A DNA stretch of 64,000 nt from an uncultured Gammaproteobacteria bacterium. GTDB taxonomy: Bacteria > Patescibacteriota > Patescibacteriia > Patescibacteriales > WJLG01. Location: positions 64,019-128,018 of the forward strand of contig CAYNAR010000001.1 in assembly GCA_964395625.1 (NCBI GenBank), written 5' to 3'. Positions 27,347 to 62,483 of the stretch are shown one piece after another; position 1 is the stretch's first letter; every line of letters starts with the position of its first letter. The notes under the pieces are model-generated. The model was given only the letters and a program-made list of their open reading frames with translations, made no database searches and was not told the DNA's origin. The translations under genes were made by a program, and so were the position numbers.

Positions 27347-27433
27347 GGTGGGGTGCATGAGTGGTTTAAATGGACAGTCTTGAAAACTGTTGACTCTGAA
27401 AGGGGTCCGTGGGTTCGAATCCCACCTCCACCG
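27347..27433 (+). tRNA. tRNA-Ser (anticodon UGA), type II with long variable arm, no encoded CCA
   Basis: Hand fold: acceptor GGTGGGG/CTCCACC; D stem CAT/ATG; anticodon stem ACAGT/ACTGT with loop CTTGAAA; T arm GTGGG-TTCGAAT-CCCAC. Confidence 0.85.
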
Positions 27434-27471
27434 CATTAAAATAAAAATAACGGCCTAAAGCCGTTGTTTTT
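27418..27471 (+). repeat. Direct repeat copy 1 (tRNA-Ser 3' end plus terminator)
   Basis: 54 bp identical to 27639-27692. Confidence 0.9.
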
Positions 27472-27475
27472 ATTT
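27449..27475 (+). terminator. Intrinsic terminator after tRNA-Ser
   Basis: AACGGC-CTAAA-GCCGTT plus a T-rich run. Confidence 0.75.
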
Positions 27476-27638
27476 TAAGTGATGCAAGGAAAGTGGGATT
27501 CGAACTGGTTGGAAACGAAACAAGACTCGTGAGGGAACGAGCGAGTCGTAGTTGAGTGATCGTCAAGTATTCGGGGAATACTTGACGCCAACCCTGGACA
27601 AGAGAGCGAGGAGCTATTTGGCGACGAGCGAACGCGAA

Positions 27639-27692
27639 AATCCCACCTCCACCGCATTAAAATAAAAATAACGGCCTAAAGCCGTTGTTTTT
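27639..27692 (+). repeat. Direct repeat copy 2 (orphan tRNA-Ser 3' end plus terminator)
   Basis: AATCCCACCTCCACCGCATTAAAATAAAAATAACGGCCTAAAGCCGTTGTTTTT repeated 221 bp downstream. Confidence 0.9.
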
Positions 27693-27784
27693 TATTTTTT
27701 AGCTTTAAATGGTATAATTTAAATAGTATTCGCCGTGTTTTAAAAGTTTGCTTTTTTTATCATTTTGTGTTATAATTTGTTATT

Positions 27785-40690: not shown

Positions 40691-40997
40691 AGGGAGGTCT
40701 GGAATAATGCATCGCATCTGTGGTATAATAGTTAAGTATTGAGTTGTGAGTTTTAAAAATATTTTTCAGTATTCTGCCCGCCGGTAAAGGATTTGGCCGA
40801 CCCTCCTTGGCCTTATTCGATGCCAGTGGACAGAATTCTGCCAAAAACAGGCCTTACAAGGGCTTGTTTTTGGTTTATGGAAGGATTTGGGTGGGTGAGC
40901 GGTATTGTGTAGCGGAAGTGAAGCAAGGCGAGGTGTGTTGGTAAATACTGCCAGTTTTTTGTTTAAAACCTTATAATTAAAGACCTGACCCAAAAAC
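40691..40997 (+). repeat. R1 repeat copy 1 (left TIR-like end, part A, T1 hairpin, right end; promoter region replaced)
   Basis: GGAGGTCTGGAATAAT left end; part A 40751-40870 about 85-90% identical to copies 5 and 8; ends AGACCTGACCCAAAAAC. Confidence 0.85.
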
Positions 40998-41151
40998 AAA
41001 AAGTGTCCTTAAAAAAGTGGCAGTAGTTCACTGATTGGTTTGGCGGTTATCTTCTTGATAGCCGTTTTTTTATTTTTTGTGAGGCACTAATTGTGAGAGT
41101 GTGTTTTCTTGAATAAAAAAGCCCTTCATTTTTTAAAATGAAGGGGTGATT

Positions 41152-41940
41152 TTATAAATTCCAGCCAATAGTATTTAGACCAATAAAGAACGTTGGTTTT
41201 ATGGAGGTATTTGATTCTTTGCCGAGTCGCGTTGTGTGTACCTTTGTCGGGTAAAATATGCCAGCCTCGACTCCGAGAAATTTAGCACTCAAGGAGATTG
41301 GCAAATGATGACTTAAGCTATAAATTGTCCGGTCATCACCATTCGAACTGCAATTCTTTTCTGCTTGAAGATGAAAATAGGAAATAAATCCTTTCACTGA
41401 AAAGTAGTCATTAAAAAGATATTCGACGTATGCCTCTGGAGAGATTGCCAAAAAATTATCAAAATCCGGACTCTTTGTTCTGGGAATTACTCCATTCTTT
41501 TTGAAGGTTGTGTAGTATGGTGTTTCGTAAAAATTCCTTGTCCCAGTGCTATTGCTAACGGGTACCCAATAACCACCGGAATGTCCTTTTTCAGGTATGG
41601 TGATATTCCAGTTTAATCCAACGCCAACACTGACCGGCTCAAGGTCGAAATCAAAACGATGCGACAATTCGATCAACAATCCGCTGCGGGAGCGATATTT
41701 TTCTTTCTCAATAACTTGTGTGCGACTCATGTCGAATTTAATCTCATCATAGTATTTTGGCGGCCAAAGCGAAACAGTTCGAATCTCAAGCGGCATATTT
41801 TTAATAACAAGATCATTCGGTCCGATGTATTTTATCGTGACATTATTACAGAGATAATCACCGCTTTCGCCTTTAAGGTTTTGAGTAAATACAAGAGGAG
41901 TGACAATCGCCATTATTTTGGCGCCGGATAATAACTTCAT
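41152..41940 (-). CDS. Secreted beta-rich hypothetical protein
   Basis: 262 aa; N-terminal hydrophobic segment; alternating beta-strand-like pattern; unknown family. Confidence 0.55.
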   Translation of the reverse strand: MKLLSGAKIMAIVTPLVFTQNLKGESGDYLCNNVTIKYIGPNDLVIKNMPLEIRTVSLWPPKYYDEIKFDMSRTQVIEKEKYRSRSGLLIELSHRFDFDLEPVSVGVGLNWNITIPEKGHSGGYWVPVSNSTGTRNFYETPYYTTFKKNGVIPRTKSPDFDNFLAISPEAYVEYLFNDYFSVKGFISYFHLQAEKNCSSNGDDRTIYSLSHHLPISLSAKFLGVEAGIFYPTKVHTTRLGKESNTSIKPTFFIGLNTIGWNL

Positions 41941-42054
41941 TTAGCACCACCTTTTTGAAAGTTTGGTTTGGAAAAAATGTTAATCTCTAAAATAAATATT
42001 TGATTGTGAAAAAACGAAATCATATTATTATATTTAAAAAACGTCATTTTGTCA

Positions 42055-42290
42055 AAAAATAAGCCTCGCGATGGCTTGTTTTTGGTTTACACAATGGTTT
42101 GGGTTGTGTGGCGGTGATTTATATTATCCTGAAAAATAGGCGGTTTTTAGGGCATTTCAGGGCCTTAAAAACGCTTGCAAATTCTATTTTTTCGTGTTAT
42201 ATTATGGCTTAATCCAAAAATGGCAAATATTGCCAGTTTTTTCGTTTAAAACGCTAAAAGCAAAGACCCGCTCTTAAAGTGATCCAAAAA
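42055..42290 (+). repeat. R1 repeat copy 2 (starts at T1 hairpin; promoter and T2 present)
   Basis: AAGCCTCGCGATGGCTTGTTTTTGGTTT...TATTATCCTGAAAAATAGGCGG...CTTGCAAATTCTATTTTTTCGTGTTATATTATGGCTT...TGGCAAATATTGCCAGTTTTTT. Confidence 0.85.
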
Positions 42291-42331
42291 CCGTGTTCAT
42301 TAAAAAAACTTAAAATGAAAAGGAGTGAAAA

Positions 42332-42826
42332 ATGACAAGGTATTGCTTGGTGTTGTTGTCCATGTCCATAGCTTCCGTGATTTCCGGAATGCTTTACGTC
42401 CAATTTTTCGATTCGTTTAGAAGTAGGAAATTTTTGAAATTATTTCTATATTCAATCGGATTGACTGCTGTCGCCGGAATCTGTTTCACCTTGATGAATG
42501 ATTTTCAGCAAAAACTCGTTCCCATCGACTTTGTGAAAAGCGTAGCGTTCTATGGAGGGATGGTTATCGCTTTGCCGGTAGTTTTTTTCATCGTCTTTTC
42601 TTTGTTCCTTCATCCTTTCCTTGGTTGCAAGCCAGCTATTGGCAACAACCAATTGGCTTATGCCCTTTTATCATGCATAGCGTTTCTTCTTCCGTTGATT
42701 TTTGTAAAAGGAGTGATAATGACCGAGCCTCCAAGTTTCTTCGTTCTACTATTTGGGGTTTGTACTTGCTCCCCGGTCATAATTATCTTATTCGTTGCTA
42801 AAAATTTTAAAAAATCACTTGCTTAA
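42332..42826 (+). CDS. Polytopic membrane protein (about 5 TM), unknown function
   Basis: RBS AAGGAG; hydrophobic throughout. Confidence 0.6.
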   Translation: MTRYCLVLLSMSIASVISGMLYVQFFDSFRSRKFLKLFLYSIGLTAVAGICFTLMNDFQQKLVPIDFVKSVAFYGGMVIALPVVFFIVFSLFLHPFLGCKPAIGNNQLAYALLSCIAFLLPLIFVKGVIMTEPPSFFVLLFGVCTCSPVIIILFVAKNFKKSLA

Positions 42827-42986
42827 ATGGTCCATTTGCGAGGCCTCAAGAATATTTTCTTGAGGCTTTTAATTTAAACTTATAATTTGTATTGTCCTAT
42901 AAAATTATTTGAAAACGCTTACATGGATATGGCGATTCCGAAGATGAAGACCTTTTTGATGATGATTTTTAAGTTTATAATAAAAT

Positions 42987-43256
42987 ATGAATTTCAATAA
43001 ATTAGAAATTGGTAAGCCAATATTAAGTATCACGGGCAGAGCTAGTTATGGAATAATAGGAATAGGGAAGGATGATTCTTGTGTTTATTACAAAAGAATA
43101 AATACTGGATCAGAAGAAAAAATAGAGAAAACAAAACTGGAAGAAATCAAGAGAATGAAAGAGGCTGGGAAAAAGATCAATACAAAAACCATTAAAGAAA
43201 TCGTTCCAAGAAAGCAGTCGCCGGCATTGGCAATACTAAAGAAGCTTGAAGAGTAA
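42987..43256 (+). CDS. Small basic hypothetical protein
   Basis: 89-aa ORF; its last about 8 codons recur as a remnant at 45016-45048. Confidence 0.45.
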   Translation: MNFNKLEIGKPILSITGRASYGIIGIGKDDSCVYYKRINTGSEEKIEKTKLEEIKRMKEAGKKINTKTIKEIVPRKQSPALAILKKLEE

Positions 43257-43285
43257 TACAACAAAGCTTAACCCAAGGCCCGATA

Positions 43286-43418
43286 TTGTTTTAAAGTCTT
43301 TTTTATGCTAAGGTTAGATTTAATAATAAAACAGACAAGTTTGATCACATTCCGGAGGGACTAATGAGATGGACGATAAAGATTTGAACAAGGCAAGATG
43401 TGGCCTTGTTTTTGTTTT
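43286..43418 (+). promoter_or_regulatory. F2 module copy a: promoter TTGTTT-17-TGcTAAGGT, RBS plus 7-codon mini-ORF (43364-43387), terminator (43388-43418)
   Basis: GGAGGG-4nt-ATGAGATGGACGATAAAGATTTGA abuts stem ACAAGGC/GCCTTGT plus T run; 3' ~60 nt identical in copy b. Confidence 0.6.
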
Positions 43419-43436
43419 CTCGTTAATCTTTATAAA

Positions 43437-43895
43437 ATGAATATCATTATCACTAAACCTCAAGATGAGGAAATAGATATAGTTAAAGATGTTACCGAGA
43501 AAGCCTATAAAGAACCGTATCATGAAAACAGTCTAATCACCCAATTCAAGGAAGCCGATGATTTGAGAGAGAAATTCGTTAACGGTGAAATCGGCATAGT
43601 CGTTGCCCGTATTAATGATCAAATAGTTGGCTCGGTTAGATACAAGATAAAAGAAACCGGTGAATTGTATCTATTCAAATTAGCCGTCTTGAAAGAGTTT
43701 AGAAAAAATGGCATAGCTTCGAAGCTTCTATTGGCAATAGAAGAAGAGGCGAGAAGAATTAATATTTTAACAATAAAGCTGGATTGCGCTCAAGAAAAAT
43801 TCCTGCCGCCATTTTATGAAAGACACGGATATAAAATAGATGAAATCAGAGAACACGGCGATCATCATGATGTCTATATGTCGAAAGTCGTTTGA
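43437..43895 (+). CDS. GNAT-family N-acetyltransferase
   Basis: Start MNIIITK; LAVLKEFRKNGIASKLLLAIEEEA (motif A R/QxxGxA); YERHGYK. Confidence 0.8.
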   Translation: MNIIITKPQDEEIDIVKDVTEKAYKEPYHENSLITQFKEADDLREKFVNGEIGIVVARINDQIVGSVRYKIKETGELYLFKLAVLKEFRKNGIASKLLLAIEEEARRINILTIKLDCAQEKFLPPFYERHGYKIDEIREHGDHHDVYMSKVV

Positions 43896-43910
43896 TTATT
43901 TAAATTTTTT

Positions 43911-43985
43911 AGGTAGCCATGAAAACACCCCGCGGGGTGTTTTTTGTGCTTTTAAGGTTTGTTTTTGGTTTAGGGGCGGGCGACT
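43911..43985 (+). repeat. R1-related degenerate fragment (copy 3) with terminator module
   Basis: AGGTAG..GAAAACACCCCGCGGGGTGTTTTTT plus AAGGTTTGTTTTTGGTTTAGGGG. Confidence 0.6.
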
Positions 43986-44119
43986 AAAATAATATTTTAA
44001 AATGTAATTTTGTGATATTATTATTTTAGGAGGGAAACGTAGAAAAATTTTTTTGGCGCATAAAAAGCCGAAATCAACCACTATGCCCCTTTAGGTGGTG
44101 GTATTTTTTTAATTTTTTT

Positions 44120-44752
44120 ATGATTTATGCTTATATAGATGAATCTGGTAATCTTGGCTACAATGAAGGATATTTTATTATTGCCATGTTATCTTCCAAT
44201 AATCCGAAGCGACTAAAAAATATAATAAAATCATTTTGCGCCTATAAATCATTGTCAGAAGTTCATGCAACCGACCTATCTTTCCCTGATAAGCAATACT
44301 TGGTAAACAAACTAGTAAAGCAAAAGGATTACAGCATTTCCTATGTCATTGCCGACAAAATGATGATTGAAAATAAAAAATTATTTGATAATAACAACAT
44401 ACTTTTTAATTATCTTTTCTCTTTTTTAGTTAAAGATATTATTGCTGCCAATACGGGCGATATAGTTTTGCATTTAGATAATAGAACGCAAAAAGTAGCG
44501 TCAGCTAATTCGTTAAAGGATTATATACATATAAAAGCCTTTGCCGAGTGGGGGTTTGATAAAAATCTTGTGATAAGCTATATAGATTCAAAACATTCCA
44601 AGGCTGTGCAAATGGCCGATTTGGTAGCCAACTGCATACATCGCAAGTATCGTCATGGCGTAAGTGATTTTTATTCGCGCTTAAATATTGTGAAGTCCAT
44701 CAAATTTCCAAGTTTAAGTTTTAGAGAAAATTTATTTTTAAAAGATAGTTGA
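44120..44752 (+). CDS. DUF3800-family protein
   Basis: N-terminal MIYAYIDESGNLG; C-terminal Q.ADLVAN region. Confidence 0.7.
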   Translation: MIYAYIDESGNLGYNEGYFIIAMLSSNNPKRLKNIIKSFCAYKSLSEVHATDLSFPDKQYLVNKLVKQKDYSISYVIADKMMIENKKLFDNNNILFNYLFSFLVKDIIAANTGDIVLHLDNRTQKVASANSLKDYIHIKAFAEWGFDKNLVISYIDSKHSKAVQMADLVANCIHRKYRHGVSDFYSRLNIVKSIKFPSLSFRENLFLKDS

Positions 44753-44776
44753 CAAAAAGATATAAATTGATAGTAT
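44749..44776 (+). promoter_or_regulatory. Promoter TTGACA-16-TGaTAGTAT overlapping the DUF3800 stop codon
   Basis: Consensus -35; extended -10. Confidence 0.45.
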
Positions 44777-44782
44777 TATAAT

Positions 44783-44876
44783 ATACATAAATCCTATAGG
44801 GAGCTCTAAGGAGTAAGCGGCGTTTCCGCCGTCGAACTATAGGTAGTTGTGAAAACACCCTGAGGGGTGTTTTTTA
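44783..44876 (+). ncRNA. Candidate small RNA (about 90 nt) downstream of DUF3800
   Basis: Closing helix CCTATAG(44793-99)/CTATAGG(44837-43), inner hairpin CGGCG-TTTC-CGCCG, terminator ACACCC-TGAG-GGGTGT plus T5. Confidence 0.45.
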
Positions 44877-45012
44877 GTATAACCTAAGGCTTGTTTTTGG
44901 TTCCTAGAAGGATTTAGGCAGGGAGGGGGTATTTATATTATCCTGAAAAATAGGCGGTTTTCAGGCTATTTTGGGGCCTGCAAAACGCTTGTAGTTTCTA
45001 TTTTTCATCTAT
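44841..45012 (+). repeat. R1 repeat copy 4 (terminator module, T1 half, part B; promoter degenerate)
   Basis: AAGGCTTGTTTTTGGTTCCTAGAAGGATTT...TATTATCCTGAAAAATAGGCGGTTTTCAGGC...CTTGTAGTTTCTATTTTTCA. Confidence 0.8.
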
Positions 45013-45015
45013 TAC

Positions 45016-45077
45016 AAAAGGGCAATATTGAAGAAGCTTGAAGAGTAATACAACAAAGCTTAACCCAAGGCCCGATA
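45016..45077 (+). repeat. Duplicate of the 3' end and downstream flank of CDS 42987-43256
   Basis: GGCAATATTGAAGAAGCTTGAAGAGTAATACAACAAAGCTTAACCCAAGGCCCGATA vs 43227-43285, nearly identical. Confidence 0.8.
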
Positions 45078-45106
45078 TTGTTTTAAGGTCGTTTTTATGC
45101 TAAGGT
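45078..45106 (+). promoter_or_regulatory. F2 promoter copy c (TTGTTT-17-TGcTAAGGT), no mini-ORF or terminator
   Basis: Same promoter as 43286 and 46064; reads directly into CDS 45144. Confidence 0.55.
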
Positions 45107-45143
45107 TGGATTCAATACAACACCGAATTAAAATAAATAATTG

Positions 45144-46073
45144 ATGAAAAAAATTGAAAGAATAAAAGACATTCTAAGTAGAATTGATAATGATAGTTTG
45201 CTTAGAATCAAGCAGGAAATTAAGGATAAGGAATTACTATTGATATCTTTGGCGGAAAAAGGGGAGATAAGCGACAAAACTTGTGAAGACTCCGTCTTTG
45301 ATTATTTAAAATTGAGTAAAAATCCGCCCCGGCCAAAAAATTTAAACGAGCTCATGGTTCAATTTATCGGTAGTGCGTTCAGTTACAATAGAATAAGAAT
45401 ACAAATGCGCAAGATTCATAGAGAAAGATTTGGCAATCCCGATTTTCCGATAAAAAGCGAGCACAAAAAGATATTGTCATATATTTTTAACGATCAAAGA
45501 TTGAATGACGATTTTTTTTGGCACCCAGAAAGGTTGGGAATTCTAATGGATGAGATTGAGAGTAGGGGGGACTATAATAACCCGATGATTATAACACCGT
45601 ATTGGCTTGGGCGTATAATGTCTACCTTGCTGACAGCGCCGAAAAGAATAATGGAGATTACAGGTGGCGACATATCTGCTTTCTATAAAAAAATCGACGA
45701 AATGTGCAATGACGAATGCCAAGGCGACATCTTTGAAAAATCCAAAAGATTATGGAATTTTGCCAAAGAGATTAGTGTTGGAGTAAAGAATGTAGGCCCC
45801 AATCTGGTTTGTGATTTTTTGAAAGAATCCGGTTTTACAGCCTACGCCAAAATGGATGTCCACCTAATGAGGAGTATGGGGAATTTCTTACATAATTTTA
45901 AAGATGAGAAACTTGATGATTTTGAATCCTTTGTTACCGCGCAGTGGTTTGCCGATAAGATAGGAATGACGCCGTATAGATTTGATAAGATTTTGTTTGT
46001 CTGGGGTATTCAATATCCACAAAAAAATAAAAAAGCGAAGTGCAAGAAAGAAACCACCCAATGTTGTTTTTAA
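45144..46073 (+). CDS. Hypothetical protein with possible HhH-GPD (endonuclease III-like glycosylase) C-terminal motif
   Basis: GVKNVGPNLVCDFLKESGFTAYAKMDVHLMRSMG resembles GVGxKTAxxV...xxVDxHxxR. Confidence 0.35.
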   Translation: MKKIERIKDILSRIDNDSLLRIKQEIKDKELLLISLAEKGEISDKTCEDSVFDYLKLSKNPPRPKNLNELMVQFIGSAFSYNRIRIQMRKIHRERFGNPDFPIKSEHKKILSYIFNDQRLNDDFFWHPERLGILMDEIESRGDYNNPMIITPYWLGRIMSTLLTAPKRIMEITGGDISAFYKKIDEMCNDECQGDIFEKSKRLWNFAKEISVGVKNVGPNLVCDFLKESGFTAYAKMDVHLMRSMGNFLHNFKDEKLDDFESFVTAQWFADKIGMTPYRFDKILFVWGIQYPQKNKKAKCKKETTQCCF

Positions 46074-46198
46074 GCTGTTTTTGTGCTAAGGTTGGATTTA
46101 ACAAAGAAATAGACAAGTTTAATCACATTCTGAGGGGATTAATGAGATGGACGATAAAGATTTGAACAAGGCAAGATGTGGCCTTGTTTTTGTTTTTT
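46064..46198 (+). promoter_or_regulatory. F2 module copy b: promoter, mini-ORF (46142-46165), terminator (46166-46198)
   Basis: -35 overlaps the stop of CDS 45144-46073; mini-ORF MRWTIKI identical to copy a. Confidence 0.6.
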
Positions 46199-46203
46199 AG
46201 TAT

Positions 46204-46380
46204 ATGATAAAAAAGATTTGCACGGATGAAGATAAATTGAGGTGTCCTAATTGTGGTGGTGAATTATATTTTGCTGCAGAGTTTAAGAAAGAAGATGTAA
46301 TATATTACGAATGTCGCAGTTGTGAGAGCGGAAAAAATCAGTCCAAGGTAAGAGTAGTTGGGGGCTTAGTTTGTTGGTGA
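46204..46380 (+). CDS. Small zinc-ribbon protein (58 aa; below ORF-track cutoff)
   Basis: MIKKICTDEDKLRCPNCGGELYFAAEFKKEDVIYYECRSCESGKNQSKVRVVGGLVCW; CxxC...CxxC. Confidence 0.55.
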   Translation: MIKKICTDEDKLRCPNCGGELYFAAEFKKEDVIYYECRSCESGKNQSKVRVVGGLVCW

Positions 46381-46402
46381 ATTTTTAAAATAAAATTAAA
46401 AT

Positions 46403-47269
46403 ATGAAAATTATAGGCATATTAAAAAAAGGTGAAGAAGAAAAGAAAAATATTCTTTACAATCTTTTAAACTCTTACTATTTTGGCAAAATAGAAAGGTG
46501 GAAGAGGAAGGGCGTTTCAGAAGATGATGCTTTTGATAAATATTTAAACTTCTTTATTGCATTGAATATTGCTTATAATCTTTGGGCAAATATAGATAAT
46601 CCAAATTTTAATCCTATTGGAAGCGATGCATCTGCGTTTAAAAAAATAGGCTCCGATTTGTTGAATGATTTAGGTGATGGTGGCAATAGTTACTTGCAGG
46701 GGTTAATTAATATTCTTGATAGTAATCATCTTTTTTTAAATGTTGGCACACAAAATAAAAAAGAAGATATTAAAAATGTTTTCGCAAGAGCTCATGCTAG
46801 TAATGATGTTAAAAAAATAAAAGAAATTGCTTGGGAATCATTTTATTCTGCTAGATGCAATCTAGTACATGGTGTGAAAGGTTATGAAATTTTTCAGGCC
46901 GTGCTTCTTGGATTTATGAACGATGAGCTCTTGAAGCATATAGAAGAAATTATTAAACAGTTAAAAATTTTAAGTGATTTATTAACTATTAATCTGAAAA
47001 TTAAAAAAGATTGTGAGTTTGATAGTGTGGGCGGTGGTGGTAGGTATAAAATTATTAGCAATGACGATGTTGTTGTGAAAATAAAGAGATTGAATGCGGT
47101 TTACGCAGAAAGAGAGTATCCTGTTAAGATGAGTGAGCTTTTGGAAATATTAACAAATTTTTATGGAAAAAGAGGAGAGATAAATACAAGCACCATCGAT
47201 CTGTATGTTTCTGGAAGAGAGTCACTGGCTATGGCAATTTTAAAGCATTGTGAAATTGTAGAAAATTAA
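46403..47269 (+). CDS. Hypothetical protein with RX4H (HEPN-like) motif
   Basis: ESFYSARCNLVHGVKG contains R-x4-H followed by G; N-terminal all-helical pattern. Confidence 0.35.
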   Translation: MKIIGILKKGEEEKKNILYNLLNSYYFGKIERWKRKGVSEDDAFDKYLNFFIALNIAYNLWANIDNPNFNPIGSDASAFKKIGSDLLNDLGDGGNSYLQGLINILDSNHLFLNVGTQNKKEDIKNVFARAHASNDVKKIKEIAWESFYSARCNLVHGVKGYEIFQAVLLGFMNDELLKHIEEIIKQLKILSDLLTINLKIKKDCEFDSVGGGGRYKIISNDDVVVKIKRLNAVYAEREYPVKMSELLEILTNFYGKRGEINTSTIDLYVSGRESLAMAILKHCEIVEN

Positions 47270-47306
47270 TAGTAATTTTTAAAATAATTAGTTTAAAACT
47301 ATATTT

Positions 47307-47534
47307 ATGCAAGAGATAAAAATTGAGGACAAACAAAAATATCTTAATGAACACTATCTTTTTGCGCCTGTTCCTAAGATTGAAGAGAAAATGGTATGTG
47401 CTCATTGTGATTCCGTTTTTACAGTTGGTGATTATAGAGTGTATAAAGATGAAACTGGTTTCGAGGCTATTTGTTGTCCTAATGCACCAGAATGCAAGGG
47501 AACAATTATAGATTGGGTGTCAAAAGAAGAATAA
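47307..47534 (+). CDS. Small zinc-ribbon-like protein
   Basis: CAHC...CCPNAPEC Cys pairs; 75 aa. Confidence 0.5.
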   Translation: MQEIKIEDKQKYLNEHYLFAPVPKIEEKMVCAHCDSVFTVGDYRVYKDETGFEAICCPNAPECKGTIIDWVSKEE

Positions 47535-47650
47535 ATTTTGGGTCAAGTCTTGAATCGTGAATTTTAAAAATATTTTCCAGCACTCTGTCTGCTGGCAAAA
47601 GATCTGGCCAACCCTCCTTGACCTATTTAATGCCAGTGGACAGAATTCTG

Positions 47651-47683
47651 CCCAAAACAAGCCCCTCAAAGGCTTGTTTTGGG
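47651..47683 (+). terminator. R1 internal hairpin T1 (13-bp perfect stem)
   Basis: CCCAAAACAAGCC-CCTCAAA-GGCTTGTTTTGGG. Confidence 0.6.
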
Positions 47684-47771
47684 TTTTGGAGGGGTGAAAC
47701 AGGCTGTCATTGTGTATTTTGTCGCTCAGAAAAAGAGGGGGTTACGAGACTGTTTTAAGCCCCAAAAACAC

Positions 47772-47800
47772 TTGCAAATTATATTTTTTCGTGGTATATT
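47772..47800 (+). promoter_or_regulatory. R1 internal promoter TTGCAA-17-TGgTATATT
   Basis: Conserved in 6 R1 copies (42.2, 47.8, 48.96, 50.7, 52.0 and 54.4 kb). Confidence 0.6.
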
Positions 47801-47812
47801 ATGGCTTAAATT

Positions 47813-47839
47813 AAAAATGGCAAATATTGCCAGTTTTTT
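47813..47839. terminator. R1 internal hairpin T2 (bidirectional terminator)
   Basis: AAAAA-TGGCAA-ATA-TTGCCA-G-TTTTTT. Confidence 0.65.
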
Positions 47840-47923
47840 GTTTAAAAAAGTCTTAATTCCAGACCTGACCCCAAAATTAATTTAAACTTGTAATTTGCAT
47901 ATAGATAATATATGTATAATAGC

Positions 47924-47951
47924 TTGACATACGGATTATTAATGGTATAAT
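47924..47951 (+). promoter_or_regulatory. Promoter TTGACA-16-TGgTATAAT
   Basis: Consensus hexamers plus extended -10 upstream of the NYN leader. Confidence 0.65.
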
Positions 47952-47957
47952 TAATTT

Positions 47958-48019
47958 ATACATCTTCTGTCGCTTCGGTGGCAGAATGCGGGGTTGCAGA
48001 AATGCAACCCTTGCTTTTT
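47958..48019 (+). ncRNA. Structured leader/short RNA ending in a terminator 12 nt before the NYN start codon
   Basis: Hairpin TTCTGTCGC-TTCG-GTGGCAGAA (47965-86); GGGTTGCA-GAAA-TGCAACCC plus TTGCTTTTT (47991-48019). Confidence 0.5.
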
Positions 48020-48030
48020 AAATACGATAT

Positions 48031-48723
48031 ATGCGAGCATGCGTTTATGTTGACGGCTTCAATCTTTTTTACGGAAGCTTGAAAGGGGGTAAATATAAAT
48101 GGCTTGATATCGATAAACTTGTAAAGAATTATTTTCCTTCGTACTCAATAGAAAAAATAAAATATTTTTCCGCTCCGACTAAGGCGCGAAAAAACGATCT
48201 TAATAAACCTGTCCGGCAACAGATGTATTTTAGGGCATTAAGAACAAACCCGAACACAGAAATAATCCTCGGATCGTTTTTGGAAAATGAGGTTTGTTTT
48301 TTTGTTCCATCAAAAACTAAAAATGGCACACAGCAAAAAGCAAAAGTTTCTGTGTTAAAGAACGAAATGAGCTTGCCTTTGGTTGATCCGAATTATTTGA
48401 TAGTCAAAAAAACGGAGGAAAAAGGGTCAGACGTAAATTTAGGAGCTCATTTGGTTATGGATGCGTATGAAAAAAGATTTGACGTAGCTATTGTTGTTTC
48501 CAATGATTCAGATTTAGTTGAGCCAATTAGAATAGTTAACAATATGAACAATCTAAGAGTCAGGTTGTTAAATCCCTACCCTACAACACAAGAAAAGTTA
48601 AAGAAGGTCACGGCGAACACTGGAATAAAATACATAAGACAAAGCGTGCTACAAATTTCTCAATTCCCAGAGAACATGAAAGATATTGTTGGTTGTTTTC
48701 ATATACCGCAAAATTGGAAGTAA
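48031..48723 (+). CDS. NYN (LabA/DUF88-like) domain protein, putative RNase
   Basis: ACVYVDGFNLFYG; EKGSDVNLGAHLVMDA; DVAIVVSNDSDLVEPI. Confidence 0.75.
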   Translation: MRACVYVDGFNLFYGSLKGGKYKWLDIDKLVKNYFPSYSIEKIKYFSAPTKARKNDLNKPVRQQMYFRALRTNPNTEIILGSFLENEVCFFVPSKTKNGTQQKAKVSVLKNEMSLPLVDPNYLIVKKTEEKGSDVNLGAHLVMDAYEKRFDVAIVVSNDSDLVEPIRIVNNMNNLRVRLLNPYPTTQEKLKKVTANTGIKYIRQSVLQISQFPENMKDIVGCFHIPQNWK

Positions 48724-48753
48724 AGAGTAATATGAAATAATGGGTCTTTGTAG

Positions 48754-48990
48754 AAACAAGCCTCTTGGGGTTTGTTTTTGGTTTCTAGAGGGACACAAAG
48801 CATGTCACCCCGAGCGTAGCCGAGGGATCATAATAATTCTTACTCCTTATTATCCTGAAAAATAGGCGGTCTTAAGGCTGTTTTGGGGCTCTAGTTGTTA
48901 TTGCGAGGCCGGTATTTCCGGCCGTGGCAATCCAGTATTAAAATCACCTAAAAACACTTGCAAATTATATTTTTTCGTGGTATATTATGA
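48754..48990 (+). repeat. R1 repeat copy 6 (T1, part B with two small insertions, promoter; T2 and right end absent)
   Basis: AAACAAGCCTCTTGGGGTTTGTTTTTGGTTTCTAGAGGG ... TATTATCCTGAAAAATAGGCGG ... CTTGCAAATTATATTTTTTCGTGGTATATT. Confidence 0.85.
48958..48986 (+). promoter_or_regulatory. R1 promoter copy driving the methyltransferase-rSAM-peptide operon
   Basis: TTGCAA-17-TGgTATATT; no T2 hairpin before ATG 49051. Confidence 0.6.
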
Positions 48991-49050
48991 CTTCCTCAAA
49001 ATCGTTATAAAATAAAATTTATTTTTTGATAGTATGTTAATGCGAGACTT

Positions 49051-49521
49051 ATGAATAATTTTTTAGAAGAATTTATAAAGGAAAAATATGGATCAAACGT
49101 TGGCTCGGCTTTGGATTTTGGCGCCGGTAAAGGTGTTGATGTTCGCGAGCTACAAAAAATAGGCTGGGATGTCAAAGGCCTTGATCTTCCCAGTAATGAT
49201 CTTAACTTTCCTTATAAGACCGATAAACAAGTTGATTTTATTTATTCCATAGCAGTAATCCAGTTTATCAAAGATAAGGAAGTTTTTGTTAGAAATATTA
49301 TCGACAATCTTAAGGATGATGGTTGGTTTTTTATTTTAACCTTTTCTAAGAATGATGTTTTCTTTGGTGAGAAAGGCGGTATGTCAAAAGAAGATTTAGA
49401 AGGTCTTTTTAAAGAATTTAAAAATGTAAAAACCGAAAACAAAGATTTTTTCGATAATGACATAGGGCATAATCATTGGCATAAATTACTTATAGTAACA
49501 GGACAAAAAAGGGGGGAGTGA
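49051..49521 (+). CDS. Class I SAM-dependent methyltransferase
   Basis: ALDFGAGKGVDVRELQKIGWDVKGLDL; DFIYSIAVIQFI; LKDDGWFFILTF. Confidence 0.7.
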   Translation: MNNFLEEFIKEKYGSNVGSALDFGAGKGVDVRELQKIGWDVKGLDLPSNDLNFPYKTDKQVDFIYSIAVIQFIKDKEVFVRNIIDNLKDDGWFFILTFSKNDVFFGEKGGMSKEDLEGLFKEFKNVKTENKDFFDNDIGHNHWHKLLIVTGQKRGE

Positions 49522-50270
49522 TGAGTAGATTTTATTTGCAAATGCACATTACAAATAAGTGTAATAATCGATGCTCGCATTGTTATCAGTCTGACTATGG
49601 CGGAGAAGATATGAGTGTCGATTCGGCAAAGTTGATTTTTAAAGAGCTTTCTTCGATTTGTAAAAAAGTTTCAGTAAGGTCGGAAGTTTCAATTACTGGA
49701 GGTAGTCCCGTATTGGCGGATGGTTTTATTGAAATAGTCGAGACAGCCAGGGAGCTTTGCGATGTCGTAAGGATTCTTGGCAATCCAGAAGGATTGAGTG
49801 ATGAAATAGTTTTGTTTTTAAAAAAGGTCGGAGTGGATGGTTTTCAACTGTCCCTTGATGGCTCAAGACAGACCCACGATTCTTTAAGAAGTAGCGGTAG
49901 TTTTGACAGGACTATAAGTGCTATGAAGAAGCTATCGTCGGAAGGAATTTTAGTTTTTGTTAATTCTACTTTATCTGATAATAATCGCCACGAAATAAGT
50001 CTTATTAATGAAATCGCAGAAGCTAATGGCGCCAGTCATGTTTCTTTTGAAGAGTATGTTCCGTATGGTTTGGATTGTTCCGGAAAATGTAATTGTAGTT
50101 TGGGCTCCGCCACAATGGCCATTTTGCCGGATCTTACAATTATGGCTTGTCGAAGGACTCCGTCTAGTATTCTTGGAAAATGGACCAAGGAGCGTGGATT
50201 ATTTTATCATTTAGCCAAAAATGAAAAAATGATAGAGTATAGGAGAAGGAAGGCGTTGAAAAATGCATAA
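49518..50270 (+). CDS. Radical SAM enzyme with short C-terminal Cys-rich (twitch/partial SPASM-like) region
   Basis: Overlaps upstream stop (GTGATG); CNNRCSHC = CX3CX2C; ITGGSPVL; LSLDG; C-terminal CSGKCNCSLGSATMAILPDLTIMAC. Confidence 0.8.
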   Translation: MMSRFYLQMHITNKCNNRCSHCYQSDYGGEDMSVDSAKLIFKELSSICKKVSVRSEVSITGGSPVLADGFIEIVETARELCDVVRILGNPEGLSDEIVLFLKKVGVDGFQLSLDGSRQTHDSLRSSGSFDRTISAMKKLSSEGILVFVNSTLSDNNRHEISLINEIAEANGASHVSFEEYVPYGLDCSGKCNCSLGSATMAILPDLTIMACRRTPSSILGKWTKERGLFYHLAKNEKMIEYRRRKALKNA

Positions 50271-50306
50271 TATAATCAACCTTAAAAAAGAAAGGAGTAA
50301 GTGCCC

Positions 50307-50414
50307 ATGTCACAAGAGCTTGAACTTCAAAACTTGAAGCTGGCTGGCGTTTTTGATGAAGCTTGTACGCTTTGTATCAATGTCGGCACCGGTGGCGGAT
50401 CGGATAATGATTAA
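50307..50414 (+). CDS. Candidate RiPP precursor peptide (35 aa), not in ORF track
   Basis: RBS AGGAG; MSQELELQNLKLAGVFDEACTLCINVGTGGGSDND; 36 nt after the rSAM stop; terminator follows. Confidence 0.6.
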   Translation: MSQELELQNLKLAGVFDEACTLCINVGTGGGSDND

Positions 50415-50430
50415 TTATCATATCCTCCTG

Positions 50431-50459
50431 GACTACAACGTTCGTTGTAGTCCTTTTTA
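50431..50459 (+). terminator. Intrinsic terminator of RiPP operon 1
   Basis: GGACTACAAC-GTTC-GTTGTAGTCC plus T5. Confidence 0.85.
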
Positions 50460-50530
50460 TTTAGTGATTTAAAATATGGTTGTTGTGAGTAAGACAAAAC
50501 AGTGTTGAGACGGAATCGCTAAAAGTAAAG

Positions 50531-50801
50531 TTCTGATTCCAAAATGCCAAAAATAAGCCTCCTGTGAGCTGCACCCCGTTTAGTAGACACGAATAAAATA
50601 CTAGCGGTTCTCTAAAAGGGTTTAGAAGGGGTCTGGCAATTTGTATTATCCTGAAAAGTAGGCGGTTTTCAGGCCATTTTGTGGCCTTGAAAGCGCTTGC
50701 AAATTCTATTTTTTCGTGGTATATTATGGCTTAAATTAAAAATGGCAAATATTGCCAGTTTTTTGTTTAAAACCTTATAGCTAAAGACCTGGCCCCAAAA
50801 T
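50531..50801 (+). repeat. R1 repeat copy 7 (degenerate left part; part B, promoter, T2, right end)
   Basis: TATTATCCTGAAAAGTAGGCGGTTTTCAGGCC...CTTGCAAATTCTATTTTTTCGTGGTATATTATGGCTTAAATTAAAAATGGCAAATATTGCCAG...AGACCTGGCCCCAAAAT. Confidence 0.85.
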
Positions 50802-50825
50802 TTGAAAACACCCTGAGCAAACTAA

Positions 50826-50850
50826 AAACCAACCCGTTAAGGTTGGTTTT
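50826..50850. terminator. Bidirectional hairpin after the minus-strand HEPN pair
   Basis: AAACCAACC-CGTTAA-GGTTGGTTT. Confidence 0.65.
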
Positions 50851-50861
50851 TGACTAACTAA

Positions 50862-51218
50862 CTATTCAGTATCTTTGGATTTTATTATATTAGCATAATG
50901 CACCGTATTTCCGTTTACCTTTTCATTTTCTATAATCGATCCCGACTTAAATTGCATTAATTCTTGAATAAGGTGTTCGGTCTCGGGGTAAATAGCTATT
51001 CTGGCTATTTCACTAACTTCTTCAGGACTTAATGAGTCAATAATATTTTTGCGAATAATATTGAACACTTCTTCTCTGTTTTCATCATTTGCCCAGGGAG
51101 CACAAAAAACAATCGTCCATTTATCAACGAATTCATCCATTTTGAGTAAAGCAAAAATCGTAACTTCGCTTTTTTCCTCCTCAATTTTTTCTATTATTTC
51201 TTTAAATTTTTCTAACAT
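50862..51218 (-). CDS. Hypothetical acidic protein, downstream partner of the HEPN gene
   Basis: Overlaps the HEPN ORF by 7 nt; no nucleotidyltransferase motif seen. Confidence 0.55.
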   Translation of the reverse strand: MLEKFKEIIEKIEEEKSEVTIFALLKMDEFVDKWTIVFCAPWANDENREEVFNIIRKNIIDSLSPEEVSEIARIAIYPETEHLIQELMQFKSGSIIENEKVNGNTVHYANIIKSKDTE

Positions 51219-51667
51219 ATAATATTTTTCTCTATAAGTGGGATTATTCCATCTGGCTTTTTCGTGAGAAAAGTATATAAATTTTTTGTAATTTTTTCAT
51301 CGAACTGAGTAAGCGTATCATACCTAATGTCAGTCCATCTTCCTATTTTTGAGTATTCTTGTGTGAAACCCGACCAACTACTAGCGCCTTCTCCGGACAG
51401 CTCAAATATTTCAGAAGCGCCGGAAATAGGGAGCAACAAATCAAAATCATGTGTCAAAAAATAACTAGTTATCTTTGGATTTTTAGTTTTTTTTATTTCT
51501 GGATAATTTTTTAAATTAAGCACTTTGCATGCCGATGCCTTCAATATGCATTCTAACACAAACCCCATTAGATATACAGCAACGCCCCATTCCTGATTGG
51601 ATATTAAAATATCGACCGTTTTAAGGCGATTTTTAGCTAAGGTAAGAAAATCATTGCAATTAGCCAT
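51212..51667 (-). CDS. HEPN-domain protein
   Basis: FLTLAKNRLKTVDILISNQEWGVAVYLMGFVLECILKA; THDFDLLL; C-terminal IRYD, matching classical HEPN helix layout. Confidence 0.55.
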   Translation of the reverse strand: MANCNDFLTLAKNRLKTVDILISNQEWGVAVYLMGFVLECILKASACKVLNLKNYPEIKKTKNPKITSYFLTHDFDLLLPISGASEIFELSGEGASSWSGFTQEYSKIGRWTDIRYDTLTQFDEKITKNLYTFLTKKPDGIIPLIEKNIIC

Positions 51668-51792
51668 AATAATTTTAAAATAGCATAAAAATATTATTAA
51701 GGCAAGTTTGCAGAAGTGACCATAAAAACAGATCTTTAACGATATTTACTTGGAAATATTTGTTTTTTTATGTTACGCTAAAGCTTAATATG

Positions 51793-52026
51793 AAAATATT
51801 TTCCAGTATTCTGTCCGCCGGCAAAGAGCTGGCCGACCCTCCTCGGCCTGCTTGATGCCAGTGGACAGAATTCTGCCAAAAACAGGCCTCGCAAGGGCTT
51901 GTTTTTGGTTTCTGGAAGGATTTAATCGTGGTTGTGGTGTTTGTATTATCCTGAAAAATAGGCGGTTTTAAGGCTATTTTGGGGTCTTGAAAGCACTTGC
52001 AATTTCTATTTTTTCGTGGTATAAAA
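51793..52026 (+). repeat. R1 repeat copy 8 (part A, T1, part B, promoter; T2 and right end absent)
   Basis: AAAATATTTTCCAGTATTCTGTCCGCCGGCAAAGAGCTGGCCGACCCTCCTCGGCC...CTTGCAATTTCTATTTTTTCGTGGTATAAA. Confidence 0.85.
51997..52025 (+). promoter_or_regulatory. R1 promoter copy (TTGCAA-17-TGgTATAAA) driving the rSAM-peptide-HExxH operon
   Basis: No T2 hairpin; RBS AGGAGG and GTG 52077 lie 50 nt downstream. Confidence 0.6.
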
Positions 52027-52076
52027 AATAGAAATGTTTTTTGATAGAGCACTTTAAATTTTTACAGGAGGTTTTT

Positions 52077-53384
52077 GTGATTTACAGAAGTTTAACAGCT
52101 CCAATATCTTGCCAAATTGAATTGACAACGGCTTGTCAGCTTAAGTGTGTTCATTGTTATAATCACTGGAGATGCTTAAGTTGCGACAACGATTTGTTTA
52201 TGACCGAAAAAGAGGCGGAGTTTGTCGCTAATCAGATTATTGATGCAAAGGTATTTCAGGTGACTCTAACCGGTGGAGAACCTTTGCTTAACCGCAAGGC
52301 ATTATTTCGTATTCTTGATTTACTGAAAGATGAAAGAATTGAAATCGGGTTAAATTCTAACTTGATTAGTCTGAGTGAGAAGGATGTTGATATTCTGCAT
52401 GCTGGAAATGTTAAATCCGTTTTAACTTCGTTTGCTTCATCTAGCGAAAGTGTGAATGATAGTATAATGAAGCTTGACGGGGCGCAAAAAAGAATAATCA
52501 AAGGGATCGAGTTGGTTGTGGAAACTGGTTTTAGTGTTGGTTGTAGCATGGTTGTCACCAAAATGAATCTTGATGATGTTGTTGAGACCGGATTATTCCT
52601 TCAGAGTCTTGGTGTGACTAATTTTTACGCCACAAAGGGTTCCCCACCGCTAAACTCCAAAGGTTTTGATAACTTTATGCTTTCCGGCGATGAATTGTTG
52701 AAGGTGATGGATGATTTGAGCTTATTAAAGGAAAGACACGGCCTTGAAGTTGGGATTTTGGAATGTTACCCGGTTTGTTTTTATTGTTTCCAGGAAAAAT
52801 ACCCTTTTACTGTCGGTAAGCGTTGTAGTGCTGGGTCGACGGCTTGTGCTATTGGTTCTGCTGGTGACGTTAGGGCTTGTACTCATTCAGACGTTATTTA
52901 CGGTAATATCTTTAAAGGAGGTTTAAAGGAAGCGTGGGGTGAAATGAGGGACTGGAGAGATGGGGCTAGGATTTCCTCGACTTGTAGAACGTGTGTTTAT
53001 TTTCCTGAATGTAGCGGTGGATGTAGAGTTGATGCTGAATTTTGCGGTGGTGCTAAGGATTCCATGGATCCTTATGCTGATAAAAATCAGATAGCAAGTG
53101 TCAGCTTGCTTAAAAAAGATGTATTGGTTGAATTTTCCGAAGAACAAAGATTTTTTGTAAAAAAAATAAAATTTAGAAAAGAGATTGACTCTGTTTTATG
53201 CGCAAGCCTTGATCGCGTGCATAGTCCGGTTTTGTTGACGGTGGATATGTTTGATTTTCTTGTTGAAATGAGTGAAAAGACCTTTACATTGTCGGAAATG
53301 TCAAGTATAATCAACTTGGATATTAATTCTTGTAAGGAATTGTGTTCATGTCTTTTTAAGGATGGATTGCTAAGTGTTCTTTAA
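52077..53384 (+). CDS. Radical SAM/SPASM-domain peptide maturase with C-terminal PqqD/RRE-like extension
   Basis: GTG 52077 with RBS AGGAGG (track TTG 52041 unlikely); CQLKCVHC; TGGEPLL; CSAGSTACAIGSAGDVRAC; CRTCVYFPECSGGC...C (CX2CX5CX3C). Confidence 0.85.
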   Translation: MIYRSLTAPISCQIELTTACQLKCVHCYNHWRCLSCDNDLFMTEKEAEFVANQIIDAKVFQVTLTGGEPLLNRKALFRILDLLKDERIEIGLNSNLISLSEKDVDILHAGNVKSVLTSFASSSESVNDSIMKLDGAQKRIIKGIELVVETGFSVGCSMVVTKMNLDDVVETGLFLQSLGVTNFYATKGSPPLNSKGFDNFMLSGDELLKVMDDLSLLKERHGLEVGILECYPVCFYCFQEKYPFTVGKRCSAGSTACAIGSAGDVRACTHSDVIYGNIFKGGLKEAWGEMRDWRDGARISSTCRTCVYFPECSGGCRVDAEFCGGAKDSMDPYADKNQIASVSLLKKDVLVEFSEEQRFFVKKIKFRKEIDSVLCASLDRVHSPVLLTVDMFDFLVEMSEKTFTLSEMSSIINLDINSCKELCSCLFKDGLLSVL

Positions 53385-53403
53385 AAAGAAAGGAGGTAAT
53401 TGC

Positions 53404-53544
53404 ATGAAAGAGAAGAAGAGCTTCGGATACGTTTCTTTGTTGCTCGATACATCTGTCGAGAATAAAAAAGACGATTCTAAAGCAGCTGTTTCGATGTCTT
53501 GTTACTGCAATTGTAATAGTTGCAATTGTTATGTGACAAAGTAA
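53404..53544 (+). CDS. Candidate Cys-rich RiPP precursor peptide (46 aa), not in ORF track
   Basis: RBS GGAGG; MKEKKSFGYVSLLLDTSVENKKDDSKAAVSMSCYCNCNSCNCYVTK; starts 19 nt after the rSAM stop. Confidence 0.7.
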   Translation: MKEKKSFGYVSLLLDTSVENKKDDSKAAVSMSCYCNCNSCNCYVTK

Positions 53545-53559
53545 AGTTTCTTGTTTTAT

Positions 53560-53578
53560 GGGCATCAATTTGATGCCC
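53560..53578 (+). other. Perfect stem-loop between precursor ORF and HExxH gene
   Basis: GGGCATCA-ATT-TGATGCCC; no clean T run. Confidence 0.6.
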
Positions 53579-53588
53579 TATTATATTT

Positions 53589-54299
53589 ATGCTAAAAAAG
53601 ATAGGTTTAAAATTTGTTTCAAATAAAAATAACGATGTGGAGGAATTTTTTCGTCTCTGGCATGGGCACGAAAATCTTAGAGTTGGCTTAATGGATTTTG
53701 TAAATAACAATTCGAACAATATCATACACCCCGATATTGCCCCGTCGAAAGATATTTTGGCTTTGGCTGTGAAAAGTAGATACGAGATGGATGAGAAAAA
53801 GATCGTTAAAACGTTATTTTTTGCGGAGAACAAATGGTGCGAAATAGAACCGTTATTTTATGATTTAGTCGGCAAGATATTTAAGAAGGATTTTTCCTTT
53901 GATAAAATAATAAAGGTCTATGTTTCAGTGCTTCCGTTTTTTGTAAGAAATTTGGATGAAGGGCGTGTCTCTATTCCGTATAACACAAGCAATGAAAACG
54001 AGCCAGTTTTTGTTTTAGCTCATGAGCTCTTGCATGTTATTTTCTATTCTTACATTCATGATAATTATGAAGAATTAAGAGAAAGTCTTTCTAGTAAGAA
54101 GGTTTGGGATTTTTCTGAAGCTATAAACGTCGTTATACAGGGGCAGGTTGAGTGGGTGAATATTTTTAAAATAGAGCCCAGCTTTTATCCCGAGCACGAA
54201 GCGTTGTACTTAGCACTGAATAAAAAGTGGGAAAAAGATAAAGACATAGATTCTTTGATAAGGGATTTTTTGGTTAATGTGGCAGAACGGCAAAATTAA
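53589..54299 (+). CDS. Putative HExxH zinc metallopeptidase
   Basis: VFVLAHELLHVIFYSY; same operon as rSAM and precursor. Confidence 0.5.
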   Translation: MLKKIGLKFVSNKNNDVEEFFRLWHGHENLRVGLMDFVNNNSNNIIHPDIAPSKDILALAVKSRYEMDEKKIVKTLFFAENKWCEIEPLFYDLVGKIFKKDFSFDKIIKVYVSVLPFFVRNLDEGRVSIPYNTSNENEPVFVLAHELLHVIFYSYIHDNYEELRESLSSKKVWDFSEAINVVIQGQVEWVNIFKIEPSFYPEHEALYLALNKKWEKDKDIDSLIRDFLVNVAERQN

Positions 54300-54518
54300 A
54301 AACAAGCCTTTTGGGGCTTGTTTTTGGTTTCTGGAAGGATTTAATCGTGGTTGCGGTGTTTGTTTGTCCTGAAAAATAGGTGGTTTTAAGGCCATTTTGG
54401 GGTCTTGAAAACACTTGCAATTTCTATTTTTTTGTGTTATATTATGGCTTAATCTAAAAATGGCAAATATTGCCAGTTTTTTGTTTAAAAAGTCTTAATC
54501 ACAAATCCGACCTCAAAA
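54297..54518 (+). repeat. R1 repeat copy 9 (T1, part B, promoter, T2, degenerate right end)
   Basis: AAACAAGCCTTTTGGGGCTTGTTTTTGGTTTCTGGAAGGATTTAATCGTGG...CTTGCAATTTCTATTTTTTTGTGTTATATTATGGCTT...TGGCAAATATTGCCAG. Confidence 0.85.
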
Positions 54519-62477: not shown

Positions 62478-62483
62478 TATTAT

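Follow-up and report, generated by a model that had tools for sequence, protein, structure and literature searches.

The window analysed here, a stretch of 64,000 nucleotides, is a piece of bacterial chromosome that holds ATP synthase genes, mraW, genes for a penicillin-binding protein and a Mur ligase, and one tRNA-Ser. Its G+C content drops from ~0.44 to 0.27–0.38 across ~40–60 kb, and the section at ~40–55 kb is an island made up as a mosaic of short cassettes, with repeated intergenic modules between them. Among the island cassettes are a GNAT acetyltransferase, a DUF3800 protein, a NYN protein matching the defence candidate HEC-09, radical-SAM enzymes together with small Cys-rich peptides, and several orphans. 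Relics of recombination are found in the island, namely a 28-nt gene end within one of the repeat copies described below (copy c) and half terminators at 43950 and 44880. No integrase was present among the ORFs scanned in the window. Shine-Dalgarno (SD) sequences are used sparingly: the SD core precedes only 12 of the 50 plus-strand genes, and 4 of 16 in the island. Where present in window genes, the SDs are AAGGAGG-like and placed 5–8 nt from the ATG. Throughout the window, starts lacking an SD are found in A/T-rich context, often 10–25 nt past the T tract of a terminator. Outside the island, the 3′ end of the tRNA-Ser(TGA) gene (27347–27434) and the terminator following it are repeated 221 nt downstream (27418–27476 compared to 27639–27697, 97% identical), an arrangement similar to the scar that integration at a tRNA gene leaves.

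The island harbours F2, a unit of ~130 bases that is present on the plus strand in two full copies, a (43286–43418) and b (46064–46196), offset by 2778 nt. Copy a begins with a promoter-like site (43286–43314) comprising the −35 hexamer TTGTTT (43286–43291), a 17-nt spacer, the dinucleotide TG (43306–43307) and the −10 hexamer TAAGGT (43309–43314). With transcription starting putatively near 43321, the 5′ part of the leader (43321–43363) contains the SD GGAGGG (43354–43359) 4 nt from the ATG, its GGAGG core (43354–43358) being 5 nt before the ATG. The mini-ORF thus preceded (43364–43387) consists of the codons ATG AGA TGG ACG ATA AAG ATT TGA, encodes the peptide MRWTIKI and ends with the stop TGA at 43385–43387. 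An intrinsic terminator (43386–43418) follows, with the stem GAACAAGGC/GCCTTGTTT (43386–43411) closed by the 8-nt loop AAGATGTG, and a T tract that extends to 43418. The stop codon abuts the stem at a distance of 0 nt, as an earlier note on this DNA had it, and the G and A of the TGA in fact already form the base of the stem. The GNAT acetyltransferase gene (43437–43895; Pfam match), which has no SD, starts 19 nt after the T tract.

Copy b has the same promoter elements (46064–46092), with the stop codon of the upstream 309-aa gene (46071–46073) located inside the spacer, 1 nt past the −35 hexamer. Its mini-ORF (46142–46165) is identical to that of copy a and is preceded by the SD GAGGGG (46132–46137); its terminator (46164–46196) is likewise identical. 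The genes after copy b (46204–47269, plus strand) encode a 58-aa zinc-ribbon protein (46204–46380) and a 288-aa protein (46403–47269), neither with an SD. In both copies, the hairpin and T tract lie 72–104 nt past the −10 element and 8–19 nt before the downstream ATG. A 31-nt pattern combining ORF and stem occurs exactly twice in the window, with no occurrence expected by chance. Both hairpins were also picked up by a terminator scan. All elements of F2 that the earlier note had described, from promoter, SD and mini-ORF to the stem and the spacing to GNAT, were found in their places.

A third, partial copy informs on the promoter. Copy c (45021–45117, plus strand) is 94% identical to copy a and contains the F2 promoter (45078–45106), with no mini-ORF and no terminator; it includes a 28-nt relic from the 3′ terminus of a gene paralogous to the 89-aa gene located upstream of copy a. 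It is placed 37 nt before the 309-aa gene (start at 45144), so that the promoter leads directly to a gene. Occurrence of the promoter before a gene without the mini-ORF/terminator block was counted against an attenuation reading of F2. In all three copies, the −35, TG and −10 elements are invariant and the spacer varies at 6 of 14 positions; the probability that all variable promoter sites fall in the spacer by chance is p = 0.006. Relative to consensus, 6 of 12 positions match, in addition to the extended −10 TG, which explains why the site was not listed by a consensus scan. Given the invariant elements and the location of copy c directly before a gene, the F2 promoter is probably real.

The hairpin of F2 has a folding energy of −11.6 kcal/mol, and its stem pairs are formed with probabilities of 0.98–1.0 in the full leader; folding of the nascent leader as far as the loop leaves the 5′ arm of the terminator unpaired. 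RNA folding revealed no competing or antiterminator helix against the terminator in either copy. F2 is hence not a classical switch, and opening of the terminator requires an occluding ribosome or a protein factor on the 5′ arm. A single weak helix upstream in the leader would, on folding, sequester the SD. The fold z-scores of F2 (−1.5 to −1.9) are not significant, with 9–15 of 200 shuffles folding equally well. Searched against Rfam at the gathering threshold, the window returned the tRNA-Ser as its only match; on F2 there was no match even at E = 10, leader models included, and a weak Phe_leader match (E = 2.9) is located elsewhere in the window, on the opposite strand. F2 as an RNA switch was rejected for want of an alternative fold, and F2 as a known cis-regulatory RNA (riboswitch, T-box, protein-binding leader) for want of an Rfam match. 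In its form, AACAAGsC...GsCTTGTTTTTGkTTT, the terminator is of the genome's ordinary gene-end type, and this was counted against attenuation.

The mini-ORF is led by an SD whose form and spacing are those of real SD-led genes in the genome, and although 4 substitutions have occurred within 10 nt, neither copy has lost this SD (GGAGGG compared to GAGGGG); both observations were counted in favour of attenuation. A 5-mer SD, an ATG and a stop located within −6 to +3 nt of the stem were recovered together in 1.7% of dinucleotide shuffles of the F2 leader, and ~20 chance short ORFs with SD and ATG exist across both strands of the window. Since many intergenic regions were inspected, the arrangement of SD, ATG, stop and stem is suggestive, not compelling. 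The geometry that it would offer to a ribosome is, as read from the sequence, sound. A ribosome covers roughly 12 nt downstream of its A site. The 9-nt 5′ arm, which begins at 43386, falls within this footprint, so that a ribosome with the UGA in the A site would cover the arm completely; the occlusion envisaged in the earlier note is therefore sterically workable. In collided ribosome–polymerase complexes, the distance from the P site to the polymerase active site is roughly 30–40 nt, and a ribosome on the last codon would consequently abut a polymerase on the T tract.

Timing is the more demanding part. The distance from the ATG to the release site is only ~54 nt, and a ribosome would have to initiate and arrive at the stop codon while the polymerase transcribes roughly 50 nt more. 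Read from the sequence, there is no TTNTTT RNA polymerase pause motif between 43364 and 43402, the sole TTGTTT near the copy a mini-ORF being that in the 3′ arm and T tract, and no pause hairpin between the mini-ORF ATG and the terminator. With only ~54 nt available between ATG and release, and with no pause signal, a freshly initiating ribosome would normally reach the mini-ORF stop too late. The peptide MRWTIKI exhibits no codon run, hence no hint from its codons of a sensed signal.

Comparison of copies a and b reveals an uneven distribution of substitutions. Differences are found at 15 of 76 positions (20%) before the terminal block, in agreement with the earlier remark that the preceding sequences differ, and at 0 of 57 positions within it (p = 4e-6 under uniform divergence); in the stretch 43321–43363, 9 of 41 positions differ. 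The identical block, put at 60 nt in the earlier note, is real and measures 57 nt (43362–43418). It covers 8 loop and 7 wobble positions, whose identity has p = 0.037 under a model of selection on peptide and stem alone, in which these sites are free to drift at the neighbouring 20% divergence. Because loop and wobble positions are identical too, identity of the copies is no evidence of constraint. Copy a is itself a mosaic, its left part c-like and its right part b-like. A recent conversion tract, plausible since the island demonstrably shuffles segments, would explain the 57-nt identity as well as constraint does.

The search for further F2 copies, as advised in the earlier note, yielded the promoter-only copy c and none more with a mini-ORF. 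With nhmmer, profiles built on the complete module and on its leader retrieved only copies a, b and c along with same-strain Logan contigs that break inside the repeat. No F2 homologue was found in GTDB genomes, JGI metagenomes, IMG/VR, or collections of phages or plasmids, which was counted against attenuation. An exact scan with 20–24-mers of the 5′ anchor gave 3 chance matches only in GTDB representatives; the ORF/stem junction gave 4 chance matches in unrelated sequence of JGI metagenomes, the pattern used there spanning the ORF/terminator junction and thus being unable to detect an intact parent gene. Three patterns searched against IMG/VR returned 0, 0 and 1 match, the last a chance occurrence inside a coding region, and blastn of F2 against phages and plasmids returned no match. 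A 30-codon open frame through F2 gave four borderline matches, all in unrelated repeat proteins and regarded as chance, and the differences between copies a and b in this frame are mostly non-synonymous; F2 as the relic of a longer coding frame was rejected, with only these chance-like matches to repeat proteins at hand. Also rejected, on motif spacing, were a sigma-54 reading of the repeats and an integron attC boundary, whose inverse core RYYYAAC and core GTTRRRY are not matched by the arms TTTGAAC and GTTTTTG as read from the sequence.

The neighbouring genes do not bring F2 with them elsewhere. The 89-aa protein encoded upstream of copy a was an orphan in the homologue search. F2 is absent upstream of the two GNAT homologues (79% and 48% identity), and so it is from a defence island that encodes a homologue of the 309-aa protein with 47% identity. 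This island is on a JGI contig (L018; Ga0216336_10000003, the homologue at ~4001–4876), where the homologue is surrounded by a serine recombinase gene and by Shedu-like (SduA_C), PLD, Eco57I-type and Endonuclease_NS genes. Longer homologues of the 309-aa protein carry a HIT-family domain (PF01230, PF11969).

How the genes downstream are reached depends on the copy. In copy b, the ATG follows the T tract at a distance of 7 nt and no −10-like hexamer exists at a usable distance; with no room for a promoter of its own, the gene is reachable only through the terminator. At its longest, the GNAT ORF of copy a reaches back to 43398, a position within the hairpin loop. The start at 43437, and with it the 19-nt gap that the earlier note had reported, is confirmed by a 79%-identical homologue (P0003) that begins MNITISKPQ. 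A leaderless GNAT transcript arising from the −10-like TAATCT, 7 nt before the ATG, is a possible, weak option for copy a judging from the sequence; the related contig L012 has TAACTT in this position and copy b is without an equivalent. In L012, a gene for a 40-aa peptide and a terminator precede a GNAT gene 79% identical to that of copy a, and homology with the window begins only ~20 nt before the GNAT ATG. Both between copies a and b and between window and L012, homology of the cassettes breaks exactly at the terminator T tract. The gene sets after copies a and b are unrelated to each other, which was counted against attenuation. Pfam and PADLOC returned nothing for the 288-aa protein (46403–47269), in whose sequence an R-x4-H motif (ARCNLVHG) like that of HEPN nucleases can be read.

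Based on the collective evidence, F2 is a real repeated module, with a promoter that is probably functional and a strong terminator on the path to promoter-less genes. Whether the 7-codon ORF controls this terminator, by a ribosome-dependent attenuation similar to that of msrDL, is a tentative proposal that we consider possible and somewhat doubtful. F2 would then represent a portable promoter–leader module whose terminator gates the only evident transcription route into cassette genes lacking both promoter and SD. The promoter, with its putative start near 43321, would mostly deliver a terminated RNA of ~95 nt containing an efficiently initiated 7-codon ORF. Without a competing RNA, read-through would need the 5′ arm to be physically covered, and a ribosome on the last codons or the UGA could provide such cover, because the stop codon constitutes the base of the stem. 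Read-through into GNAT, or into the zinc-ribbon and 288-aa genes, would rise with a ribosome that is close behind the polymerase or lingers at the UGA, and it would fall when translation initiation lags. Both translation of the mini-ORF and the dependence of read-through on it are what we infer from the arrangement.

By analogy, the nearest known mechanism would be that of msrDL. In this 6-codon leader of streptococcal mefA/msrD, a ribosome stalled at the stop codon obstructs an intrinsic terminator, so that transcription goes on; stalling is dependent on a macrolide and on the specific peptide, the stop is UAA, and a NusG-dependent TTNTTT pause site is present inside the ORF (PMC10314930). 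F2 and msrDL share a very short ORF (7 compared to 6 codons), a strong ribosome-binding site and an intrinsic terminator just downstream, with no elaborate antiterminator; in terms of geometry, a ribosome at the end of the F2 ORF would likewise cover the 5′ arm of the terminator. In F2, however, the stop is UGA, the TTNTTT pause motif is missing, no ligand is known, and the two cassettes downstream are unrelated and without an ABC-F gene; msrDL and F2 show no sequence similarity.

Other leader systems are related to F2 in layout. In trpL, pheL, hisL and thrL, mutually exclusive 1:2, 2:3 and 3:4 helices are combined with a pause hairpin and runs of regulatory codons, and the position of the ribosome decides about termination. 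F2 has in common with them a promoter, a short SD-led ORF and an intrinsic terminator in a leader before structural genes, whereas it lacks a competing helix, an evident pause structure and a regulatory codon run. In pyrBI, a ribosome closely behind the RNA polymerase suppresses termination, which is thus a read-out of coupling; its leader ORF, 44 codons long, extends across the terminator, and UTP-sensitive pausing determines how wide the gap is. The F2 ORF, by contrast, ends at the foot of the stem, and a neighbouring leader in the island (47985–48020) comes closer to pyrBI. Operons for RiPPs and lantibiotics involve a precursor-peptide gene and a leaky terminator, the downstream gene being expressed via read-through. 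This layout resembles F2 in the sequence of a short SD-led ORF, a terminator and, within 10–25 nt, an SD-less gene dependent on read-through, and it is seen in the window at 53404–53589 and in L012. It is distinct from F2 in that the peptides have 35–46 aa and the stops are placed 15–45 nt before the hairpin, compared to 7 residues and a stop within the stem in F2.

The main rival to control of the terminator by the 7-codon ORF, and about equally likely, supposes that a small-gene cassette has collapsed, a gene start having been joined to a gene end by internal deletion or recombination and the product then copied in the island. The terminator would be merely leaky, giving a constitutive low level of read-through, and the 7-codon ORF would have no regulatory role. 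Taken by itself, such an origin is conceivable and likewise uncertain. It is consistent with a terminator of genome-wide gene-end form and with the closeness of stop and hairpin, since genes here normally end 0–47 nt ahead of a hairpin; a 236-aa gene, for example, stops 1 nt before its terminator (54299/54301). The succession of short SD-led ORF, terminator, 10–25 nt and SD-less gene is found again after the peptide gene at 53404–53544, and the peptide gene and terminator of L012 precede a homologous GNAT. The relics in the island (the gene end in copy c, the half terminators, an SD without a start codon), the break of homology at the T tract and an identity that includes loop and wobble sites, as fits recent copying, are in line with it too. 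Against it, the search turned up no intact parent gene, with just chance matches of the 5′ anchor in GTDB representatives and the 30-codon frame matching repeat proteins only at chance level; moreover, the SD survives 4 nearby substitutions, and it would be costly to keep a strong terminator without a purpose on the way from a constrained promoter to the only genes it serves.

The hairpin could also serve as the terminator of the upstream 89-aa and 309-aa genes, with promoter and mini-ORF as chance features of long 3′ UTRs. Neither of these genes has another terminator before F2, the promoter matches consensus at just 6 of 12 positions, and chance short ORFs with SD and ATG are common in the window. 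We nevertheless consider this unlikely: at 18 ordinary gene ends in the window, the hairpin is found 1–47 nt after the stop codon, and the F2 hairpins, at 129 and 90 nt past the upstream stops, are outside of this range, which was counted in favour of attenuation. The substitution pattern (p = 0.006) indicates a constrained promoter, copy c has this promoter directly before a gene, and the joint chance of SD, ATG and abutting stop is ~0.017. About as improbable is an independent small-RNA gene, possibly of dual function with a micro-peptide, whose 57-nt part acts in trans and whose position is incidental. Promoter, ~95 nt and terminator are the canonical architecture of such genes, the two copies have a variable 5′ and an invariant 3′ part, and identity at every base of the block, loop included, would be expected from a function at the RNA level; yet there is no structure beyond the terminator, no Rfam match and no homologue, and the promoter-less genes downstream would still require read-through of the terminator. 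Translational coupling, finally, would have the mini-ORF recruit ribosomes for re-initiation at the SD-less start downstream, a device similar to the short ORF in the attI1 leader of class 1 integrons. The absence of SDs from the downstream genes would suit it, and the hairpin brings stop and downstream ATG within 15–26 nt of one another through its base. The linear distance, however, is 49 nt (copy a) and 38 nt (copy b) across a hairpin of −11.6 kcal/mol, most SD-less genes in the genome have no such ORF upstream, and the T tract is left unexplained, so that coupling of this kind is very improbable.

Should control of the terminator by the 7-codon ORF be real, F2 would rank among the smallest attenuators known, working by pure steric occlusion at the stop codon. 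It would represent a modular unit placed before unrelated genes, in a little-studied bacterium in which only about one quarter of the genes have an SD, and it would provide a simple, testable example of how recombination can spread ready-made regulatory units through an accessory-gene island. A wider extension of the idea, rather improbable in our judgement, is that F2 constitutes a mobile "coupling sensor": recombination would place the F2 cassette before otherwise silent accessory or defence-type genes, and the cassette would open only with a ribosome on the UGA, without the help of any antiterminator RNA. Expression downstream would in that case report on the state of translation, for instance on termination-factor availability or on a disturbance induced by phage, and F2 would be one case of a wider practice, in this genome, of gating SD-less genes by leader terminators, with 47924–48031, 62451–62602 and the F1 module described below as others. 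If the ORF exerts no control, the lesson is one of caution, in that mosaic islands can join the start of a gene to the end of one in a way that mimics a leader-peptide attenuator.

The layout of promoter, leader, terminator and SD-less ATG recurs with unrelated sequences at 47924–48031 and 62451–62602, a recurrence that was counted in favour of attenuation. At 47924–48033, a perfect consensus promoter (TTGACA-16-TATAAT with TG) is followed by a leader of 73 nt with an SD-like GGTGG and an 11-codon ORF (47985–48020), which runs through a terminator-like hairpin (47990–48011) and T run and ends 10 nt short of the NYN/HEC-09 gene, whose start has no SD; this arrangement is pyrBI-like and unrelated to F2. 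At 62430–62453, a second 7-codon ORF (MIKMLCI) with a GGAGGGG SD overlaps another perfect consensus promoter (TTGACA at 62451–62456, 17-nt spacer, TATAAT). A leader of ~110 nt follows the latter, and it ends in a strong hairpin with T8 (~62556–62592), 10 nt before an SD-less ATG at 62602. At 43996–44120, what looks from its sequence like a decayed gene start comprises a promoter-like site, then AGGAGGG (about 44029–44035) without a start codon, and a hairpin CCACC..GGTGG with T run directly 5′ of the SD-less DUF3800 gene.

The intergenic module F1 is present in 6–7 copies within 40788–54518 (e.g., 42055–42278, 47598–47875, 50596–50800 and 54297–54518). Its elements are, in order, a terminator AAACAAGCC..GGCTTGTTTTTGGTTT, then CTGGAAGGATTT and TATTATCCTGAAAAATAGGCGGTTTTCAGGC, a well conserved promoter TTGCAA-17-(TG)nTATATT, and thereafter ATGGCTTAA, the perfect palindrome TGGCAAATATTGCCA and GTTTTTTGTTT. 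By virtue of this palindrome and the GTTTTTTGTTT following it, F1 also has a hairpin and T run just past its promoter, before unrelated cassette genes. The F1 terminator stems differ among copies by paired changes. Radical-SAM genes, one with a SPASM domain, are followed by a small SD-led peptide gene at 49518–50414 and 52041–53544 of the window and at 2670–4290 of L012. The window peptides have 35 aa (MSQELELQNLKLAGVFDEACTLCINVGTGGGSDND) and 46 aa, the latter with the Cys-rich tail CYCNCNSCNCYVTK; the 40-aa peptide of L012 ends VCMCCNAGD, and its gene is followed by that for GNAT. These loci are probably RiPP clusters.
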